Positions 7,490 through 44,007 are shown, counted from the first letter of the stretch. The stretch is 64,000 bases of DNA from an uncultured bacterium (GCA_963980225.1 CAXBYW010000005.1:1235-65234), one strand, 5' to 3'. Numbers and translations are program-made. The notes: generated by a model not told the origin, from the letters alone.

Positions 7490-8809
7490 ATGACTAAAGC
7501 CAAAGTCCGTACTAGAAATGCTCCTTCCCCAACAGGCATTCCTCATATTGGTAACACTCGTACCGCCCTTTTTGACTACCTACTGGCCAAAAAATATAAA
7601 GGTAGCTTTGTTCTTCGCATAGAAGACACCGATCAAAAAAGACAAGTAAAAGGTGCAGTAGAGGCAATTAACGACATCCATGAGTTTTTAGGGCTAGTTC
7701 CTGATGAGAGCTCAAAAGTTGGCGGTCCATATGCACCATACACTCAAACAGAGAGACTAGGTACCTACAAAAAAGTCGTCAAACAGTTGATAGACAATGG
7801 CGATGCCTACGAAGACGAGGGTGCCGTAAGAATCAAGATGCCCAAAGAGGGTTACACCGTCTGGAAAGACTTAGTTCAAGGTAAAATCTCCATTCCTAAC
7901 GAAGAGGTAGACGACAAGGTCTTATTAAAATCAGACGGCGTCCCCACCTATCACTTAGCCGCCATGGTAGACGATCACTTCATGGAGATCACTCATATAA
8001 TGAGAGGTGTAGAGTACATAGTCTCCACCCCGGTCCACTTAAAGATATACGAATCCTTAGGCTGGCAACCTCCAGTATTCATGCACGTCCCCTTACTCTT
8101 AGGTCCAGACAAATCCAAGTTAAGTAAACGTCATGGTGCCAAGAATGTACTTCAGTTTAAAGAAGAAGGTTACCTACCAGAAGCCATCAACAACTTTTTG
8201 TTTTACTTAGGTTTCTCATACAAAGATAACTCGGATCTTTTGACCATGAAAGAAATGATCGACATCTTTGATGAAAACAAGATAAGTAAGAGCAACGCTA
8301 TCTTTGACATACAAAAACTTAACTACTTCAACTCAAAGTGGATTAAAAAATTAGAAGGGGAAGATCTATTAAAAAGACTCATTCCTTTTGTAAAACCATC
8401 CTATAAAAAAGATAAAAAAAAGTTGACTCAAATACTTCCCTTAGTTAAAGATAGACTAACCAAGTTAAACGAGGCAAATGATTTAATAGACTTTTTTTTC
8501 CAGTTTGAAAAACCAGACATAGATAGTCTTTTAGAAAGTAGCCAAGCTAGTCCGGCTCTGACCTTAAGTTGGTTCAATATGGTTCAAAATGACCTTGAAG
8601 CATTAGTTGAGTTTGACCCAGAATCTATTCACAAGCTACTCAAAAAAACTCAAGAGTTATCAGACCTTTCACCTCGTCAGGCATTTATGAGTTTGCGTCT
8701 AGCTATTACCGCTAAGGACGTCACTCCACCACTTTTCGATTGCATATCTATTCTTGGAAAAGAGGAATCCTTAAAAAGACTGAAAGATTCCATGACTTCA
8801 CTTAAATGA
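7490..8809 (+). CDS. gltX: glutamyl-tRNA synthetase (truncated, 439 aa)
   Basis: HIGH motif (PHIGNTRTAL), KMSKS-like KLSKR, class I catalytic core. Confidence 0.85.
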   Translation: MTKAKVRTRNAPSPTGIPHIGNTRTALFDYLLAKKYKGSFVLRIEDTDQKRQVKGAVEAINDIHEFLGLVPDESSKVGGPYAPYTQTERLGTYKKVVKQLIDNGDAYEDEGAVRIKMPKEGYTVWKDLVQGKISIPNEEVDDKVLLKSDGVPTYHLAAMVDDHFMEITHIMRGVEYIVSTPVHLKIYESLGWQPPVFMHVPLLLGPDKSKLSKRHGAKNVLQFKEEGYLPEAINNFLFYLGFSYKDNSDLLTMKEMIDIFDENKISKSNAIFDIQKLNYFNSKWIKKLEGEDLLKRLIPFVKPSYKKDKKKLTQILPLVKDRLTKLNEANDLIDFFFQFEKPDIDSLLESSQASPALTLSWFNMVQNDLEALVEFDPESIHKLLKKTQELSDLSPRQAFMSLRLAITAKDVTPPLFDCISILGKEESLKRLKDSMTSLK

Positions 8810-9672
8810 ATAAAGATACTGCCCTCCAGAATACCATTGCTAATTTAGAAAAAAGGTCTAGTTCATTAAGAAAGGATCTTCTAAAACATAAAACCGCCAA
8901 AAAGTTCTACACCAAATCAACTCTTCTGGCTCATGAACTAAGACAAAAATCTACCCAATTACTCGCCGGAGCAGGTCTAGTTGGAACTCTCTTGGCTACT
9001 CCTGTCGGCTCCATCGTTGCTAATCAGCCAGTCCAAATTACTCAAGAAAACCTCCAACAAAACTTGACCAACAACTTAAATTCCATTGTTCCCCATCAAC
9101 CAACCAAGCTTTCTTCGGATCAAGCTAAAGACATAGAAAAACAAATCCAAGACACACTAGGTATCCCGGCTAAAGCAGTCCTAAATGATCAAACATTAAA
9201 TCACCAAGTAGGCTACATAGGTTATGAGCAGCATTTACAAAGATATCCAGGAGATTCAATAGACCAACACGATGAAGAACTAATAGCTGGTATCGCTCCA
9301 GGCAAAGGCGCTTGGGGCTACTTCTCTCCTACCAAACAAGACTTTACTACACAGGACTACCTTAGAGAAAAATATTACTCTGTAGCCCAAACTCTTTACC
9401 TACCCAACTGGAATCAGGACTTTAGGTACCTAAGAGACTGGTACAAATACAGAAAGATTCTTGTAGTTAACCCCGCTAACGGCCAAGCAGTAGTTACTGT
9501 TTTAGCTGATGCCGGGCCAGCCAAGTGGACTGGTAAGCAGTTTGGTGGTTCACCGGAAACAATGAAAGAACTAAACCTCCACAAAGGCAGTAGAAAAGGC
9601 TTAGTTTTATTTTTATTTATAGACGACCCAGACAACCTTATTCCATTAGGTCCAGTTACTAGTAAAATATAG
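8806..9672 (+). CDS. RlpA-like double-psi beta-barrel domain protein (putative septal/peptidoglycan-binding)
   Basis: C-terminal ILVVNPANGQAVVTVLADAGPAKWTG...MKELNL resembles the RlpA DPBB signature (VxNxxNGxSVVVRVNDRGP). N-terminal TM. ATGA overlap with gltX. Confidence 0.4.
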   Translation: MNKDTALQNTIANLEKRSSSLRKDLLKHKTAKKFYTKSTLLAHELRQKSTQLLAGAGLVGTLLATPVGSIVANQPVQITQENLQQNLTNNLNSIVPHQPTKLSSDQAKDIEKQIQDTLGIPAKAVLNDQTLNHQVGYIGYEQHLQRYPGDSIDQHDEELIAGIAPGKGAWGYFSPTKQDFTTQDYLREKYYSVAQTLYLPNWNQDFRYLRDWYKYRKILVVNPANGQAVVTVLADAGPAKWTGKQFGGSPETMKELNLHKGSRKGLVLFLFIDDPDNLIPLGPVTSKI

Positions 9673-9676
9673 TCCT

Positions 9677-9997
9677 ATGTCCATAATCTTTTACGATCAC
9701 TTAATAAATAAACACGAACTCCTAGTCATCATTGATAAAACAGAAGGTGAGGACAATCATAAAAGTAAGATCAAGCATTTGGTCGACGATATTCTCCACC
9801 AGGGGATTGTAGAGTTCACCTTATCCAAGTTAAAACCCAAACATCACAAGGTCTTTCTACAACAACTCCATCACGCTCCATATAGCCCCGAAATTCTAGA
9901 CTACCTCAAGGAAAAAGTTGCTCATGACATAGAAGAGCAAATCCAAAAACATGCAGACAAACTAATTAAAAAAGTCAGAAAAGATCTAGGTCTCTAA
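9677..9997 (+). CDS. hypothetical protein
   Basis: 106-aa ORF, His/Lys rich, no motif. Confidence 0.3.
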   Translation: MSIIFYDHLINKHELLVIIDKTEGEDNHKSKIKHLVDDILHQGIVEFTLSKLKPKHHKVFLQQLHHAPYSPEILDYLKEKVAHDIEEQIQKHADKLIKKVRKDLGL

Positions 9998-10689
9998 CAG
10001 CGTTTTGACTTAACATATCCAGCGTCTCTAGCTTCTTTTTCACTACAAAACCATTCTTCTCCTCTGTCTTTCTCTACTACTGTGGTCATGTACTGAACAC
10101 ATCCAGGTAGATGGTAAATTCGCCCACTTGAATTACTAGGATCGATGTTTCCTTTTATGACACACTTTGGATCTTCAATATTTTCCCACTGGTAACAGGT
10201 AGGACTATACACCCCCAGCTTATTTTCCTTCGCTTCAAGTCCCAACGCCTTTAACTCATCCGTCACGCTGCTGGTATCACTATGATATCTACCCCAACCC
10301 TTCTCAATGATCTCTTTATTGATCAATTTCTTTCCGACATAAACCAAGGCCATGGCTCTACCTCTCTGGTCCAAAATTTTCTCCCGAATAATAACTCTCT
10401 TTCCTTCCACTAGTTTTTTAAGTAAATTAGTCGCCTCCACACCACCACAAAACTCTAACTCTGGCGCATCCAGATGCCTCAGTCGTAAACGAACCTTGCC
10501 ATCAAGTACCAAGGTGTCACCGTCAATCACTCCTTCAACTGCAATACTCTCATCAAATTTTGGTAGCCCGCCTGTTGTCAGGTAAAAAGCATTTAATATC
10601 AAAGACAACCCTAAAATCAACCATCCCCAACCAAACTTTATTGGCAAACCAGACAAAAAACTGAATTTTTCCTCCTTCTTCACCTTCAC
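9994..10689 (-). CDS. thermonuclease (SNase)-like nuclease with C-terminal Cys-containing domain
   Basis: GDTLVLDGK...RLRLRHLDAPE...GKRVII...RGRAMALVYV matches the staphylococcal nuclease fold. N-terminal TM. C-terminal YHLPGC...FCSEKEARDAGY...C motif. Confidence 0.6.
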   Translation of the reverse strand: MKVKKEEKFSFLSGLPIKFGWGWLILGLSLILNAFYLTTGGLPKFDESIAVEGVIDGDTLVLDGKVRLRLRHLDAPELEFCGGVEATNLLKKLVEGKRVIIREKILDQRGRAMALVYVGKKLINKEIIEKGWGRYHSDTSSVTDELKALGLEAKENKLGVYSPTCYQWENIEDPKCVIKGNIDPSNSSGRIYHLPGCVQYMTTVVEKDRGEEWFCSEKEARDAGYVKSKRC

Positions 10690-11248: not shown

Positions 11249-12100
11249 TTGTATACTATAAATACGATGGAAGGAATTATTCAAACTTTATCTCCAGCAG
11301 AGTTAGGTAGTCTAGACAAAAAAGAAAAGGAACCAGGAAAGAGCACTGTGTTGTTGTACGGTCAACATAGAACTAAAGAAAAAGTGGCATATGAGGTGGC
11401 GCGTAGAGTTTCTAAGTTTTCACCTTTACAAAAAAAAGGATTAGTTGTTGTGGAGTATCCTAAAGGTTTTGATTATAACGATGCGTATGAAGAAGCTAAA
11501 AAGCAAACAGAAAACTTAAGCACGCAGTATCAAAATATACGAAAAGTTTTCCACGAGATTTTTAGAGAAAAAACACAAGAAGGACATAAAATTAGGGACA
11601 ATGTTTGTAAGCAAAATGCGGACAAGTTAGTGCTCGATATTCATGAAACGACTGACTTTGCAAGAAGTGAACCAAAACTAAGGAGAGATGAAATAGTTTT
11701 TTTGACATCTCTTTCCGAGAAGGGAAATGACGAGTTAAACAAAGTTTTAACAGGCATCTTCCCTGATTTAGATGATATAGATCGACCCTACAATAAGCTT
11801 CGTCTGGTTGCTAAAAACCCAACTAAAGAGAACACTGAAAGTACGTTACCGCCAAATTATATTGCAGTAGAGTTAATAACAAGAGGTGACGATATCTACG
11901 AAAAGAGCGCTAATAAAGATGGGATATGGAGTATTGGTGTAGATGAAAGAGAGGATTATTTACATAGGGAAAAAACAGATGAAAAGACTAGTTCTGCAAT
12001 AAGCAGGGAGGCGACAATTTATACCAGACTTTTAGAAAAAATTATTCCAGAAATTGAAAAATACTACACGGAAAAAGTATTAGATACAAAGTTACTTTAG
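11249..12100 (+). CDS. hypothetical protein (283 aa), probable TTG start with AGGAG 6 nt upstream
   Basis: Long ORF, no recognised domain, convergent with the paralog array. Confidence 0.4.
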   Translation: MYTINTMEGIIQTLSPAELGSLDKKEKEPGKSTVLLYGQHRTKEKVAYEVARRVSKFSPLQKKGLVVVEYPKGFDYNDAYEEAKKQTENLSTQYQNIRKVFHEIFREKTQEGHKIRDNVCKQNADKLVLDIHETTDFARSEPKLRRDEIVFLTSLSEKGNDELNKVLTGIFPDLDDIDRPYNKLRLVAKNPTKENTESTLPPNYIAVELITRGDDIYEKSANKDGIWSIGVDEREDYLHREKTDEKTSSAISREATIYTRLLEKIIPEIEKYYTEKVLDTKLL

Positions 12101-12130: not shown

Positions 12131-12170
12131 AAAAAACACCTATTCCGGTGAGGGATAGGTGTTTGGTGTA
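12131..12170. terminator. bidirectional rho-independent terminator between convergent genes
   Basis: Stem ACACCTAT(12136-12143)/ATAGGTGT(12155-12162) with extended imperfect pairing, A-run upstream and T-rich run downstream. Confidence 0.5.
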
Positions 12171-12189
12171 TTTACTAAACAAATTTATT

Positions 12190-12756
12190 TTAAGAAACAG
12201 TCTCATTAAGGACAATATCAGAGGCCTTATATTTTATTCGCATTTTTGCGACTTCATCCATAGGCATTTCATACGTCTCATTTTCTTTAAGATGGCTTAC
12301 TTGGGATTCGAACTCAACCATGAAATCAGCTACTTTATCAAAATCTCTTTCTAGTTTTTTGATTTCATAAAGCTCTTTTTGTTGGTCTACAATCTGGACA
12401 TAGATTGTACCCCCTAAAATCTCAAAGAAAAGGTCTGGATAATTGCCAATTTCTTTTTGAAGAAACTTCTTGGCCCATCTTTCTGCGCTGAGAGAATCGT
12501 ACCGTCTGGCTTTGGTTCGATCGGTCTTAATGGCTTGTTCTAATTTTGGTCCAGATCGCCAAGGCATCTGAATGAGACGCTTACTCTCCCACTGTCCTTG
12601 AAGGTGAGAATAAAGTAACCTCATCTGCCTTCGTCCTTCTTTCATTTTTTCTTCATAGGACATTAAAGCTGTCTCAACGCGTTGACGTTCTGTTTCAAAT
12701 GCGTGTCTTATTTCAACACGCCATCGTCTGAGTGTCAGGTTAATATAGTATTCCAT
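12190..12756 (-). CDS. paralog A of tandem three-gene family (unknown function, 188 aa)
   Basis: Shares YPxLF...G(S/T)I(Y/F)V and C-terminal E(T/S/I)Y(E/A)(M/L)P...(V/I)(A/G)(K/E/R)MRI(K/N/S)Y motifs with B and C. GGAGG RBS. Confidence 0.5.
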   Translation of the reverse strand: MEYYINLTLRRWRVEIRHAFETERQRVETALMSYEEKMKEGRRQMRLLYSHLQGQWESKRLIQMPWRSGPKLEQAIKTDRTKARRYDSLSAERWAKKFLQKEIGNYPDLFFEILGGTIYVQIVDQQKELYEIKKLERDFDKVADFMVEFESQVSHLKENETYEMPMDEVAKMRIKYKASDIVLNETVS

Positions 12757-12785
12757 GACCTTACCTCCTCATGGTTTTCTTGGGT

Positions 12786-13337
12786 TTACTTATTGATCAC
12801 GAGCTCGTTGATTGAGTAGTTAATACGCATTTCACCAATTTCCAAAGCAGGTAATGCATAAGACTCGTCTTGAGACTTACTTGCAATTTTCTTGCGAAAA
12901 TCAGACATAAAGTCATGCAGTTCTCTCAACCCTTGTTCGGCCGACATAAGTCTTGCAAAAAGTTCCTCTTGTTTGTCGATCAGAACAATAACTGAGTCAC
13001 TGTCTGCCATAGACAGAGTTGGGTATTTGCGAAGTTCTTCTTCGATCAGTTCTTTTGCCCAACCACCTACTCTTAGGTAATCAGGTTCATCCAGCTCGGT
13101 TAAATCATCATATAGAGTTACTTTTAAGGTTGGTGCCTCGAAGAAAAATCGAAATGGCTTTCTTCGTCGAACAATTCTGATTACATCATAAAGGTCTCTA
13201 AGTTCTTCCATCCCAATTTTTCGGATCGCATTATACTTGTCTTCTAGCGACTCAATACAAAGCTCTTCTCGTGTGATTGCTGCACTTATCTCTGCAATCC
13301 AATCTTTAATTTTTTTTCGAATTTTTTTCTCAACCAT
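12786..13337 (-). CDS. paralog B of tandem three-gene family (183 aa)
   Basis: Same conserved blocks. Upstream sequence AAACCAATATGGATTACTGGAGGTAACCATG is near-identical to that of paralog C. Confidence 0.5.
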   Translation of the reverse strand: MVEKKIRKKIKDWIAEISAAITREELCIESLEDKYNAIRKIGMEELRDLYDVIRIVRRRKPFRFFFEAPTLKVTLYDDLTELDEPDYLRVGGWAKELIEEELRKYPTLSMADSDSVIVLIDKQEELFARLMSAEQGLRELHDFMSDFRKKIASKSQDESYALPALEIGEMRINYSINELVINK

Positions 13338-13367
13338 GGTTACCTCCAGTAATCCATATTGGTTTAT

Positions 13368-13919
13368 TTATTCTTCATCAACTTTAATCACTTTACCCTT
13401 CGAATACGATATACGCATCCGGGCAACATCCAAAACAGGTAGTTCATAAATTTCATCTTCATCACCAAGGGTAGTTTCATTATAGAAAAGAGTCATGTAC
13501 TTGACCATTTCCTTCAGTGATTTTTGGGCAGCAGCAAGTTCTACCGCAAGTTCTCCTTGCTCTTTAATTTCAACAAAGATCGAACCCGAGCGTTCCATAA
13601 AAAGATTAGGGTACTGATCTATTTCTTGTTCGAGTAAACCATAAGCCCACCAAGCTACAACTAGGTAATCATGTTGTGGTAGTTCAGGTTCAGTATATGG
13701 GGCTTGTTTTAGTTTTGGCTCTTTATACCTCTTCTTCCAACGTTTATTTTGTCGGGCAATTTCGAGTAGTTCAAGAAGTGACTGAAGTTGTTTCCGGCCT
13801 ATCCGACTAGCTTCCTCATACGTTTCTTCTAATGCTTGAACATAAAGTCGTTCTCGTACTATTGCCTTTCTCATTTCGACAAGCCAATTTTTAGCCGTCA
13901 TGCGTACTTTTGTAATCAT
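13368..13919 (-). CDS. paralog C of tandem three-gene family (183 aa)
   Basis: Same conserved blocks. Upstream AAACAAATATGGCTTACAGGAGGTAACCATG. Confidence 0.5.
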   Translation of the reverse strand: MITKVRMTAKNWLVEMRKAIVRERLYVQALEETYEEASRIGRKQLQSLLELLEIARQNKRWKKRYKEPKLKQAPYTEPELPQHDYLVVAWWAYGLLEQEIDQYPNLFMERSGSIFVEIKEQGELAVELAAAQKSLKEMVKYMTLFYNETTLGDEDEIYELPVLDVARMRISYSKGKVIKVDEE

Positions 13920-14093
13920 GGTTACCTCCTGTAAGCCATATTTGTTTCTTTTTTTGTTTAGTTTGAAAGGTGCAAAAGGTAATTATATCAAGTTATAGGA
14001 CTACAATCAAATAAAAATAAGCTTTAGTCACCACAATTCTTTTGGAAAATCTATGTCATGTATAATACACATTTCAAGCTTAACTTCAATCCT

Positions 14094-15872
14094 ATGAAAA
14101 ATATCTCAAAAATCATTAGACTATCAAAACCTCTTTATAAAAAGATACTTCTTTTGAGCCTTCTTGTACTTATTATGTCCCTTGTACAACAGGTGCAACC
14201 ATTCTTCATTAAATTTATTGTTGATGATATTGATCTTCAGATCACCTCAGGTTCTGGTGATAGCAGACGAGTAATGTTCCTTATGTTGGGTATGCTAGTT
14301 GCTAACCTTTTTGCGAACCTACTTAACTCCATCAACATGAGGTTTGGTGACTACATAAATTCAAGAGTCAGAAAGTTCCTTATAGAAACCTTTTACAACA
14401 AGGTGTTCACTTTACCTCAACGATATTTTGACACCAAGGTTAGCGGTAAGATCTTAAACCAACTAGGTAGAGGGATTGATTCGATTCAACAGTTCATGGG
14501 AATGGTCACAAATTTTGTACTTCCTGCAATTTTCCAGAGCATCTTAACCGTCGGCATTCTTATGTACTACAGCCTTCCAGTCGGGTTGATCGCTCTTTTT
14601 GTTTTTCCTGCATACATACTAGTTAGTAGTTATTCAACAAAACGTTGGGGAAAAGAAGAAGTCAAAAAAAACAAGCTAGAAGACATTTCCAGAGGAAGAA
14701 TCCAGGAAGTGATAGGGAACATAAGGCTTGTAAGAGGTTTTATGATGCAAGCACAAGAATGGAAATTTGTGTCCAAGCAAATGCTCAAAATCAATAAAAT
14801 TTACGACAAACAATCAACCACTTATCATGTAATCAACTTTTTCCGCGAGTCTGGAGTCGAAGCAGTTCTTCTAGTAATATCTTTAATTGTTTTCTCAAAT
14901 ACTTTTAACGGAATTCTAACTCTTGGTGAGATGGTTCTTATCTTACAGCTACTTTTCCAAATACGAAGACCACTGTTTGCCATGAGTTTTATTCTCGAGA
15001 GAATTCAGCACGCCGAAAGTGGGTCAAAGGAATTTTTTGAAGTCATGGATCTAACGTCTTCAGAAAAGGTCAATATGAGGGCACTACCTAAAAATAGTTT
15101 CAATAAGTCTCCAAGTCTTCAATTCAAAAATATTACTTTCGAGTATGACAAAGAAAAAGGATCAGTCTTACAAGATATTTCATTCAAGATTCCTGCCAAG
15201 CAAACCGTTGCGTTGGTAGGTCATAGTGGTGCCGGTAAATCTACAATCATCAATCTCATACTTAAGTATTACGACTCCACAAAGGGTGAAATATATTTGG
15301 GAGACAAACCATACAGTAAACTAACCCATCAAGAAATACGCAGCCACATATCACTCGTCTTTCAAGATAACGAACTATTTTCGTCAACCATCAGAGAAAA
15401 TGTCGCTTATGGTATACCAAACGCAAAAGAAAAAGATATTATCTCGGCTCTCAAGAAAGCAAATGCATACGGCTTTGTATCAAAGTTTCCAAAAAAACTT
15501 GATGAAGAAATTGGAGAAAGAGGCATCAAACTTTCTGGTGGGCAAAAGCAGCGTATACAAATTGCCCGTGCAATTATGCATGACGCACCGATTCTTATTC
15601 TCGATGAGGCAACAAGTAGCCTAGACTCAAAGTCAGAAAAACAAATTCAGGAAGCATTAGAAGCTTTGATAAAAGACAGACTTGTAATAATCGTTGCTCA
15701 TAGATTCTCTACCATTCAAAACGCAGATCAAATATTAGTATTGGATAATGGAAAATTAGTTGATTCAGGACGACCAAGTGAACTAGCAAGGAAAAAAGGA
15801 GTCTATTCAGAACTACTTCAATACCAAATCAAAGGAAATCAAAAACTTCTCGAAAAATACGAACTTCATTAG
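14094..15872 (+). CDS. ABC transporter permease/ATP-binding half-transporter (MsbA/exporter type)
   Basis: Six-TM N-terminal domain, Walker A GHSGAGKST, signature LSGGQKQR, Walker B ILILDEATS. Start moved to ATG 14094 because TATAAT sits at 14061-14066. Confidence 0.8.
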   Translation: MKNISKIIRLSKPLYKKILLLSLLVLIMSLVQQVQPFFIKFIVDDIDLQITSGSGDSRRVMFLMLGMLVANLFANLLNSINMRFGDYINSRVRKFLIETFYNKVFTLPQRYFDTKVSGKILNQLGRGIDSIQQFMGMVTNFVLPAIFQSILTVGILMYYSLPVGLIALFVFPAYILVSSYSTKRWGKEEVKKNKLEDISRGRIQEVIGNIRLVRGFMMQAQEWKFVSKQMLKINKIYDKQSTTYHVINFFRESGVEAVLLVISLIVFSNTFNGILTLGEMVLILQLLFQIRRPLFAMSFILERIQHAESGSKEFFEVMDLTSSEKVNMRALPKNSFNKSPSLQFKNITFEYDKEKGSVLQDISFKIPAKQTVALVGHSGAGKSTIINLILKYYDSTKGEIYLGDKPYSKLTHQEIRSHISLVFQDNELFSSTIRENVAYGIPNAKEKDIISALKKANAYGFVSKFPKKLDEEIGERGIKLSGGQKQRIQIARAIMHDAPILILDEATSSLDSKSEKQIQEALEALIKDRLVIIVAHRFSTIQNADQILVLDNGKLVDSGRPSELARKKGVYSELLQYQIKGNQKLLEKYELH

Positions 15873-17524: not shown

Positions 17525-17565
17525 ATAAATAAATTATAGCAGTTTTCAAGAGAGCTATTTTTATG

Positions 17566-17636
17566 TTGCCGGGCTAGGATTCGAACCTAGATAACGACTT
17601 TCAGAGAGTCGTGTCCTACCATTAGACGACCTGGCA
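17566..17636 (-). tRNA. tRNA-Gln (anticodon CTG)
   Basis: Manually folded cloverleaf. U1-A72, D-stem GTCT/GGAC, anticodon stem CGACT/AGTCG with loop CUCUGAA, 4-nt variable loop, T-arm CTAGG-TTCGAAT-CCTAG, discriminator A, no encoded CCA. One A5-C68 mismatch. Confidence 0.75.
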
Positions 17637-42209: not shown

Positions 42210-42455
42210 ATGGCTACAAAAAAGGAAAATATTGATAAATACATAGATGCAATGATCGATATCATTATTGACTCATACATAGCCAAAAAGCGTAGAAAAC
42301 GAGATAGGAAATGTGCTAAACTGGATATGAGCTCAAATTTTGCCGAAGGGAATTTTGATGGCCGTCTTGGACAAATCCCTTCGGATTTGAGCTCACCAGG
42401 GCGGCCTTTAAAGTTGTATGGAAAAGAAAAAAGCAATACTGTATCTGAGGTTTAG
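42210..42455 (+). CDS. small basic protein upstream of the recombinase (candidate regulator/RDF)
   Basis: 81 aa with KKRRKRDRK. Overlaps the recombinase start. Confidence 0.25.
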   Translation: MATKKENIDKYIDAMIDIIIDSYIAKKRRKRDRKCAKLDMSSNFAEGNFDGRLGQIPSDLSSPGRPLKLYGKEKSNTVSEV

Positions 42456-44007
42456 TGACACTAAGCAATATGGCAATACAAGCATTGACTCGCAAGAAAA
42501 GATTTGCAGAAATGCCTGTGAAGTCGAGAGTTATAGTGTTGTTAAGATAATTAAAAATGAGGCGGTTTCCGCAAGCAAGACCAATACTCAAAGAGTAGCT
42601 GAACTTCTGGAGTTTTGTAAAGAGCGAAAAGGTAAATTTGATGTCCTCATGGTCTATAAATTGGATCGGTTCGCCAGATCGCAAGAACAACATCACTGGT
42701 TACGAGGACAAATTCTCAAACTTGGCGTAATACTTCGATCAGCAACAGAAAAAATCGACGAAAGTCCCTCCGGTAGATTGGTTGAGGGAGTACTTGCTGC
42801 AGTAAACGAATATGACAATGAGGTAAAAAGAGAAAGAGTGAAGATTGCAATGTGGTCTAGGGTAGAACATGGTCTTTATCCCTGGTCACCACCGACTGGA
42901 TATATACCCAAGGTGGTTCCTGGAGTGAAATTGTCACCCAGGATTATTGATAATACTTGCTGCAATGAGATTGTGAGCCTTTTTGAGCGATACTCGACAG
43001 GTCTTTACACAAAAGCCGATCTGGCTAAAGAATATAGCAAGAAAGAGATAAAGAATTACAAGGGTAAAACCCTGAAATTTTCGATTCAAACATTAGATAA
43101 TATTCTTAACAACATCTTTTATACAGGATATCTTAAATACAAAGATGGAAGACTGATTGTGGGTAAACACAAACCATTAATATCCTACGCAATGTTTGAA
43201 AAATGCCAGGAAGTACAAGCACAGCTATCAAACAACGCTAATCACAAGTATCTGAGACACAATCCTGACTTTCCACTTCGAAGATTTGTGTTGTGTGGTG
43301 ATTGCAACGGTCCACTTACTGCCTGTTGGTCAAAATCAGGAAGTGGTAAAAAGCACGCTTACTACTATTGTAAAAGTAAAGATTGTGAGATGTATTCGAA
43401 GATGATAAAGAAAGCTGATCTTGAAAACGGATTTATGGAGTATCTATCAAAAGTAAAACCCACCAAGAAGTTTGTGAAACGGTTCAATCAAAGATTTCTA
43501 AAAAGGTATAAAGAACGGGAACTGGAAATACGAGGTGATTTCTTGCGTAAAGCCGACAACATAAAGGAAATGGAGAAGGAATTAGGTTGGATAGTCAAGC
43601 AAGGTAGAAAGGGAAAGTTGCCAGAGAGAGTTGTAACAAAGCAAGTTGAAGAACTGGATCAGAAAATAATTCTTGCAAAATCACAGCTTTCAGAAGAACA
43701 CGCTGAGGAGCTGAATATCAAAGGATTGCTGTCTTATGCAGAAACATTTATTCGAACGCTAGAAAAAAACTGGTTTGACGCACAAAATGAAGTAAGAATC
43801 AGACTTCAAAGGGTAATTTTCCCCGATGGTGTCGTTTACCAAAATAATCAATTTTCGAACGCCAAATTATGCCGTGCTTTTGAGATAATCAACGACTTTG
43901 CGACCAACTACTCAAAAGATGTGACCCCGGCGGGATTTGAACCCGCGATCTCCAGGATGAGAACCTGGTGTCCTAAACCGCTAGACGACGGGGCCGTTTG
44001 TGGCTGA
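42418..44007 (+). CDS. large serine recombinase (integrase)
   Basis: Resolvase catalytic motif ILYLRFSDTKQ (Y-R-x-S-x-x-x-Q). Recombinase domain and zinc ribbon CGDCNGPL...YYYCKSKDC. C-terminal 25 codons are the reverse complement of the tRNA-Glu 3' half. Confidence 0.8.
   Translation: MEKKKAILYLRFSDTKQYGNTSIDSQEKICRNACEVESYSVVKIIKNEAVSASKTNTQRVAELLEFCKERKGKFDVLMVYKLDRFARSQEQHHWLRGQILKLGVILRSATEKIDESPSGRLVEGVLAAVNEYDNEVKRERVKIAMWSRVEHGLYPWSPPTGYIPKVVPGVKLSPRIIDNTCCNEIVSLFERYSTGLYTKADLAKEYSKKEIKNYKGKTLKFSIQTLDNILNNIFYTGYLKYKDGRLIVGKHKPLISYAMFEKCQEVQAQLSNNANHKYLRHNPDFPLRRFVLCGDCNGPLTACWSKSGSGKKHAYYYCKSKDCEMYSKMIKKADLENGFMEYLSKVKPTKKFVKRFNQRFLKRYKERELEIRGDFLRKADNIKEMEKELGWIVKQGRKGKLPERVVTKQVEELDQKIILAKSQLSEEHAEELNIKGLLSYAETFIRTLEKNWFDAQNEVRIRLQRVIFPDGVVYQNNQFSNAKLCRAFEIINDFATNYSKDVTPAGFEPAISRMRTWCPKPLDDGAVCG
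43922..43995 (-). tRNA. tRNA-Glu (anticodon CTC)
   Basis: Manual cloverleaf: acceptor GGCCCCG/CGGGGTC (one GU), D-stem GTCT/GGAC, anticodon stem CCAGG/CCTGG, loop UUCUCAU, T-arm GCGGG-TTCAAAT-CCCGC, discriminator A. Confidence 0.7.

Follow-up and report, generated by a model that had tools for sequence, protein, structure and literature searches.

Three anciently diverged tandem paralogs of an undescribed soluble protein family in a probable Patescibacteria species

Three genes lie head to tail on the minus strand of the window, the 64,000-nt stretch of DNA from an uncultured bacterium analyzed here. They are called A, B and C; A and B are the two 183-aa genes, labelled B and C in the earlier sequence-only reading, and C is the 188-aa gene. 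The features of the array are:

13982..14010, minus strand: predicted promoter of the trio (TTGATT, 17-nt spacer, TG-extended TATAAT; consensus match, 10/12)
13920..13949, minus strand: translation-initiation region of gene A; the ATG is preceded by AAACAAATATGGCTTACAGGAGGTAACC
13368..13919, minus strand: gene A (183 aa, pI 5.7, soluble)
13338..13367, minus strand: A-B spacer, serving as translation-initiation region of gene B (26/30 match to the region before A)
12786..13337, minus strand: gene B (183 aa, pI 5.1)
12757..12785, minus strand: B-C spacer (GAGGAGGTAAGGTC before the ATG); of the A/B motif the ends alone are kept
12190..12756, minus strand: gene C (188 aa, pI 8.6)
12134..12164, no strand assigned: terminator-like 13-bp hairpin, followed by a T-run on the minus strand

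The sequence-only reading had described three tandem minus-strand genes of 188, 183 and 183 aa about 30 bp apart, and its coordinates are exact, the A-B and B-C spacers measuring 30 and 29 nt. No longer ORF overlaps A, B or C on either strand, as judged from the ORF list and the sequence, and the GGAGG ribosome-binding sites reported earlier were found 5-7 nt upstream of all three ATGs. In pairwise BLASTP comparisons A and B are 36% identical (E = 9e-36), A and C 31% (E = 2e-26), B and C 26% (E = 8e-19), values in line with the quarter to a third estimated by eye. Chance is ruled out as the source of this likeness, which is homology, and the three are true paralogs. The proteins are collinear over their full length in a MAFFT alignment with 31 invariant columns, where every sequence block quoted in the earlier reading is present (W12; YPNLFM/YPTLSM/YPDLFF; GSIFVEI/DSVIVLI/GTIYVQI; E.Y.LP....MRI.Y). 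About one-third of the residues are charged, and no hydrophobic segment fits a signal peptide or a transmembrane helix. The GC content of the trio ranges from 0.386 to 0.391, the ORF mean being 0.391; a foreign origin was considered and rejected, the base composition being equal to the genome average. The trio is made up of real genes, copies that diverged long ago within an undescribed family of soluble proteins.

The promoter-like site is located about 60 nt 5' of gene A, and the hairpin at 12134..12164 is common to the trio and to a convergent gene of 283 codons. Promoter-like site, three ORFs and terminator-like hairpin fit a single tricistronic operon, a layout predicted from consensus signals. 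The 30 nt 5' of the ATGs of A and B match at 26 positions, vs. 55% identity in the codon-aligned coding DNA, in which the best 33-nt window matches at 25 positions; the upstream regions of the two 183-aa genes are thereby nearly identical, as had been observed by eye. The leader motif AATATGG(A/C)TTAC(T/A)GGAGGTAACCATG occurs in the 64-kb window at 13335-13360 and 13917-13942 only (0 occurrences expected in shuffles), and the 26-nt motif AATATGGNTTACNGGAGGTAACCATG is found in exactly two copies in the same 64 kb, preceding A and B. The leader of gene C has in common with these only AAACC..AA and GGAGGTAA. The latter is a common ribosome-binding form in this genome (11 copies vs. about 2 expected); the 12 nt 5' of it are found before A and B only. 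The idea that the conserved leaders fold into a regulatory RNA was rejected, the fold z-scores being +0.54 (A), -1.51 (B) and -0.16.

The exact protein A is encoded on 41 contigs, up to 526 kb long, from several metagenomes. Nine contigs were retrieved that match the window at 99.97-100% identity; in each the trio has the same neighbours, and its sequence contains 0 SNPs. Elsewhere, five SNPs fall in the ABC exporter gene at 14058..15872 (14468, 14516, 15093, 15154, 15807) and two in the tRNA-Gln gene at 17565..17636 (17570, 17573), with no others; a 1-nt indel is located at 14030, in the divergent intergenic region. A 1.7-kb metagenome scaffold (L018) matches the window at 100% identity from codon 6 of B through C. 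Its positions 1-569, unrelated DNA with a DsbA-like gene, are joined at an A-run to window positions 13322..12180, and the scaffold is either an assembly chimera or derived from a strain without gene A.

The genes flanking the trio encode an MsbA-like ABC exporter (divergent), the 283-aa orphan (convergent), a DUF2061 protein, a small GIY-YIG protein, a secreted SNase and GluRS; a PBP5-type peptidase and RelA/SpoT are encoded further out, and TspO, LemA and MgsA on the other side. The gene of the 283-aa orphan (11249..12100, plus strand) runs towards the trio and uses the same hairpin terminator. Pfam, NCBIfam and PADLOC assign the orphan to no family, and two related genome loci contain no homolog of it; it was considered as a relative of the trio family, and no relationship was found. 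A membrane-anchored or secreted staphylococcal-nuclease-like protein with a C-terminal 'sunset' domain (NF051437) is encoded at 9994..10689 (minus strand). The gene at 8806..9672 (plus strand) directly follows that of GluRS, stop and start codons overlapping, and encodes a 288-aa protein without family match, 65-69% identical in both related genomes; the gene is conserved and lineage-specific, and its product is probably secreted. Farther away, a 529-aa ORF (42418..44007, plus strand) contains at its 3' end, on the opposite strand, a tRNA-Glu (CTC) gene (43921..43995, minus strand).

The source organism is probably a member of the Patescibacteria. By GluRS identity the closest genome representatives are a contig at 76%, belonging to a MAG labelled Pseudomonadales that we suspect to be mis-binned, and a 'Patescibacteria group bacterium' at 60%. 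The trio family is absent from both loci examined. In the 60% relative (L013) the synteny RelA-PBP5-356aa-GluRS-288aa-106aa is kept and then lost, and no family member resides in the 21-kb stretch examined. The break coincides with the start of the lineage-specific genes of the window. Past the 106-aa gene, positions 12597-16338 of L013 look like an inserted island, judged by ORF translations only, which encodes a 716-aa helicase-like protein, a small protein whose cysteine motif resembles a zinc finger, and a Fic-like protein.

The sequence-only reading could assign no domain to the trio, and the searches agree with it: Pfam, NCBIfam, PHROGs, PADLOC and PDB sequences gave no match to either single-protein or profile queries, the best PDB profile match having E = 1.4. 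A profile search placing the genes in a housekeeping family had been named as a result that would overturn the earlier reading, and no known family was assigned. For all seven members of the family described below nothing rises above noise in Pfam, NCBIfam and PADLOC, and the PHROG matches are single-member noise. Among 5.8 billion protein clusters a word-seeded search found the three self-hits and nothing else; an exhaustive HMMER search of 1.84 billion representatives gave six matches at E <= 1e-3. Two of the six are self-hits, one is a fragment of C, two are genuine full-length relatives of 186 aa (P0005 and P0007), and the last, a repetitive 990-aa protein, was judged spurious. Two more relatives, P0008 and P0009, were recovered only by iterating the search. 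Family profiles found nothing in JGI metagenome contigs, nor did profiles of A/B/C and of the distant clade in IMG/VR; literature and accession searches brought nothing of use, and all sources call the three products 'hypothetical protein'. As far as these sequence searches reach, the family is confined to a single near-clonal species, probably of the Patescibacteria, and to one further small group of bacteria, likewise uncultured. It is new by exclusion only, as a protein family and not as a demonstrated new kind of system.

Divergent tandem paralogs had been taken as a hint of immunity, anti-defence or phage-interaction proteins. This proposal gained no direct support from the analysis, which turned up neither a partner nor a mobile context nor a link in the databases. 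A toxin-like gene next to the trio, an expected companion, is missing over about 10 kb, as are defence, phage and mobile-element genes, integrases and transposases included, and the 29-30-nt spacers leave no room for interleaved toxin modules. A, B and C have no match at E <= 10 in PADLOC-DB 2.0, where their neighbours give only generic ABC-ATPase or nuclease-domain matches. Protein A has no tblastn match in 50,697 phage records and 72,556 plasmids. The orphan status, the tandem paralogs and the patchy distribution would suit genes carried by a phage or another mobile element, for instance for anti-defence, or left behind by a prophage; yet homologs are missing from phage records, plasmids and IMG/VR, PHROG matches are not consistent, and the flanking genes are ordinary chromosomal ones of native GC, so that such an origin is highly improbable.

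The four distant relatives reside on contigs of 0.9-2.4 kb, with a GC content of 45-52%, from four sequencing runs of another study (SRR22387840, SRR22387999, SRR22388142 and SRR22388221). In two contigs (L010 and L012) the family gene comes after a gene for a PBP5-type peptidase. Positions 1-2363 of another contig, L017, contain a P0007-like gene, the P0009 gene and two small genes of 197 and 71+ aa, all on the same strand, so that the array has at least four genes. By consensus matches a TATAAT promoter precedes every one of them, and near-identical hairpins terminate them, the repeated terminator being CCGTGGGYTGT..AACAGCYYACGG followed by a T-run. The 197-aa and 71+-aa genes were considered as cryptic paralogs, and their kinship to the family could not be shown.

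In L010, where the region concerned is 1795-1961, the P0008 gene is directly followed by the start of the 197-aa gene. Positions 1806-1961 of this contig align at 85% to positions 1335-1489 of L017, the whole P0009 cassette being skipped. The terminator of L010 has the look of a hybrid between the two L017 terminators, with a 5' side resembling that of ig1 and a stem resembling that of ig2. The family genes of the two contigs are 67% identical, vs. 85% for the adjacent spacer and the start of the next gene, and the first 15 codons of the latter carry two synonymous differences. Since the flank is more similar than the gene it borders, P0007 and P0008 are maybe not orthologs, and may be different paralogs brought beside the same flank, although very little sequence is involved. 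From the two contigs of about 2 kb, copy number in the distant clade probably varies through recombination between the repeated terminator modules. The finding of a single conserved copy at all orthologous loci would have told against a diversifying array; relatives too are in tandem, and a cassette found in one contig is missing in the other. Among the nine contigs of the species the trio shows no variation; in the distant clade one cassette differs between L017 and L010.

Only W12, E23, K59, P68, W91 and A92 are invariant across the seven members, and no conserved constellation of His, Cys, Ser or Asp is found among them, which argues against an enzyme. The invariant residues are read as a conserved core rather than as a catalytic site. 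AlphaFold2 models were obtained for gene A (pLDDT 89.5, pTM 0.76, from only five sequences) and for P0007, about 20% identical to A (pLDDT 89.5, pTM 0.66). The succession of elements is identical in both: N-terminal strand, very long helix, strand/short helix/beta-hairpin unit, second long helix, and a final strand/short helix/strand. The first helix spans 49 residues in A and 56 in P0007, a difference of exactly 7 between clades, without a corresponding extension of the second long helix. By these models the family consists of highly charged alpha/beta proteins with one reproducible predicted fold.

Foldseek searches of the PDB and of predicted viral folds (BFVD) gave no match at E <= 1e-3 or TM >= 0.5; all structural matches have E >= 0.02 and a TM normalised to the query of 0.41 at most, and those to LAGLIDADG, MutS, RRF, YbjN and HIV reverse transcriptase were set aside as insignificant. 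The best match is A0A5S9EQG8, a 153-aa protein of Tenacibaculum phage PTm1 that is itself uncharacterized (TM 0.41 query / 0.48 target, probability 0.92, E = 0.028, rmsd 5.7 A, 14% identity), which falls below the usual same-fold threshold. MutS chains recur as weak matches to the gene A model (query TM 0.18-0.33, E >= 0.02), and are weaker still against the P0007 model (ranks 5 and 11, TM 0.18-0.19). The lever-clamp region of MutS has two long helices with a small beta-containing unit at the tip, a layout similar to that of the family; sequence similarity to MutS is absent, as are ATPase and mismatch-binding domains. Hetero-oligomers of the prefoldin alpha/beta type likewise combine long helix, beta elements and long helix in co-encoded paralogs of equal size, assembly being hypothetical for the trio. 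In contrast to prefoldin, the family has extra N- and C-terminal strands and no Pfam match, and no prefoldin-like chain is among the PDB matches listed (best 50 per search).

The fold echoes of MutS and Sso10a, weak as they are, bear on a rather unlikely reading in which A, B and C are nucleic-acid-binding or regulatory proteins (nucleoid-associated proteins, translational regulators), perhaps binding their own leader. The conserved segment following helix 1 is basic and aromatic (RQNKRWKKRYKEPKLK in A, WQNKPFRF..KP in relatives), the N-terminal motif (R/K)(R/K)W is conserved, and conservation of the leader motif extends beyond the Shine-Dalgarno. The structural matches, however, are insignificant (E >= 0.02, query TM <= 0.41), neither a helix-turn-helix nor another nucleic-acid-binding domain was found, two of the three proteins are acidic, the leader is devoid of RNA structure, and gene C lacks most of the motif.

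In a neighbour-joining tree of the seven sequences A, B and C group apart from the other four members with bootstrap 1.0. The clades also differ by the 7-residue indel in helix 1 and by a 12-residue loop indel, and tree and clade-specific indels together indicate that expansions were independent in the two lineages. The trio arose by lineage-specific tandem duplication, the translation-initiation region having been copied with the gene. The description of the genes as divergent tandem paralogs is thus borne out, by BLASTP homology as by the lineage-specific expansion in the tree.

The dN/dS comparison among the three paralogs is uninformative, synonymous sites being saturated (Nei-Gojobori pS 0.65-0.74), though pN is lower (0.39-0.48). 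Judging from these proportions, which yield no meaningful omega, non-synonymous change has clearly been slower than synonymous change. L011 and gene 1 of L017 form the only unsaturated pair, with 5 synonymous and 1 non-synonymous differences, and over these six substitutions selection looks purifying; positive selection is not indicated in data that are thin. The idea that the ORFs are spurious or decaying and functionless, which the want of annotation in any source might evoke, is effectively refuted: the three ORFs of about 185 codons are intact, with strong RBSs and a predicted promoter and terminator, their paralogy is significant, distant homologs have the same length and the same predicted fold, and pN is well below pS.

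Which function the family serves was weighed from these data. The reading we favour, with a probability of roughly 0.3, is that the proteins are non-enzymatic binding modules acting individually, each paralog with its own version of a partner, of the inhibitor, adaptor or immunity type. Each paralog would recognise a different version of a partner molecule, and arrays would grow and shrink as the repeated non-coding modules on either side of each gene recombine. Stand-alone modules are favoured because a catalytic signature is missing, the L017 cassettes are autonomous and one of them is dispensable, expansions were independent, and distribution is patchy. Arrays of immunity genes to polymorphic toxins are alike in several respects, being made up of divergent head-to-tail paralogs for small soluble cytoplasmic proteins without enzymatic motifs; the patchy distribution and the gain or loss of cassettes in relatives are also alike. 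Unlike immunity arrays, the trio has no cognate or orphan toxin nearby, no mobile context and no match to a described immunity or defence family, and its family shows no within-species variability and is confined to two tiny lineages.

Several observations weigh against stand-alone modules. No partner gene is visible next to the trio, and no known immunity, defence or anti-defence family is matched. Known immunity families are usually widespread via horizontal transfer, and this family, by contrast, is narrow. The trio carries 0 SNPs across the nine contigs, selection is purifying where measurable (5 synonymous : 1 non-synonymous), and cassette loss is documented by two contigs of about 2 kb. 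Operon layout and matched initiation regions would fit joint action at least equally well.

Joint action is the core of a reading that is nearly as likely and ranks just behind, and that we consider possible: A, B and C would be produced together as the subunits of a single cytoplasmic scaffold or adaptor, joined via the long helices, a homo-oligomer turned hetero-oligomer after duplication. The signals fit one transcription unit with 29-30-nt spacers, and the initiation regions of A and B, matching at 26/30 vs. 55% identity in coding DNA, would allow the proteins to be made in balance. None of the three copies has been lost or disrupted, although the genome is small and synonymous sites are saturated, and in relatives, too, two copies or more have stayed next to each other. 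In the models, the difference of one heptad in helix 1 suggests a projecting helix able to pair with another chain. On the other hand, the presence of a promoter and a terminator for each L017 copy and the absence of one copy in L010 are unexpected for obligate subunits, and co-transcription and copied leaders are the default outcome of tandem duplication.

A more far-reaching form of the binding-module reading combines a new fold with a bank of inhibitor- or immunity-like proteins, which would neutralise variable effectors of host, competitor or phage in ultra-small, probably host-dependent Patescibacteria, the arrays being reshuffled via terminator/promoter or leader modules. We regard this combination as doubtful. 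The remaining probability goes to functions outside the readings listed.

Orphan paralog clusters are commonplace in Patescibacteria genomes. As it stands, the family described here, with about eight known members, is a cleanly delimited and confidently foldable orphan family, tractable for structure determination and interaction screening. If the combination of a new fold with a modular bank of binding or inhibitor proteins proved true, it would be among the first entry points to function in the large fraction of orphan genes in Patescibacteria, and would illustrate how repeated non-coding modules can drive array dynamics.
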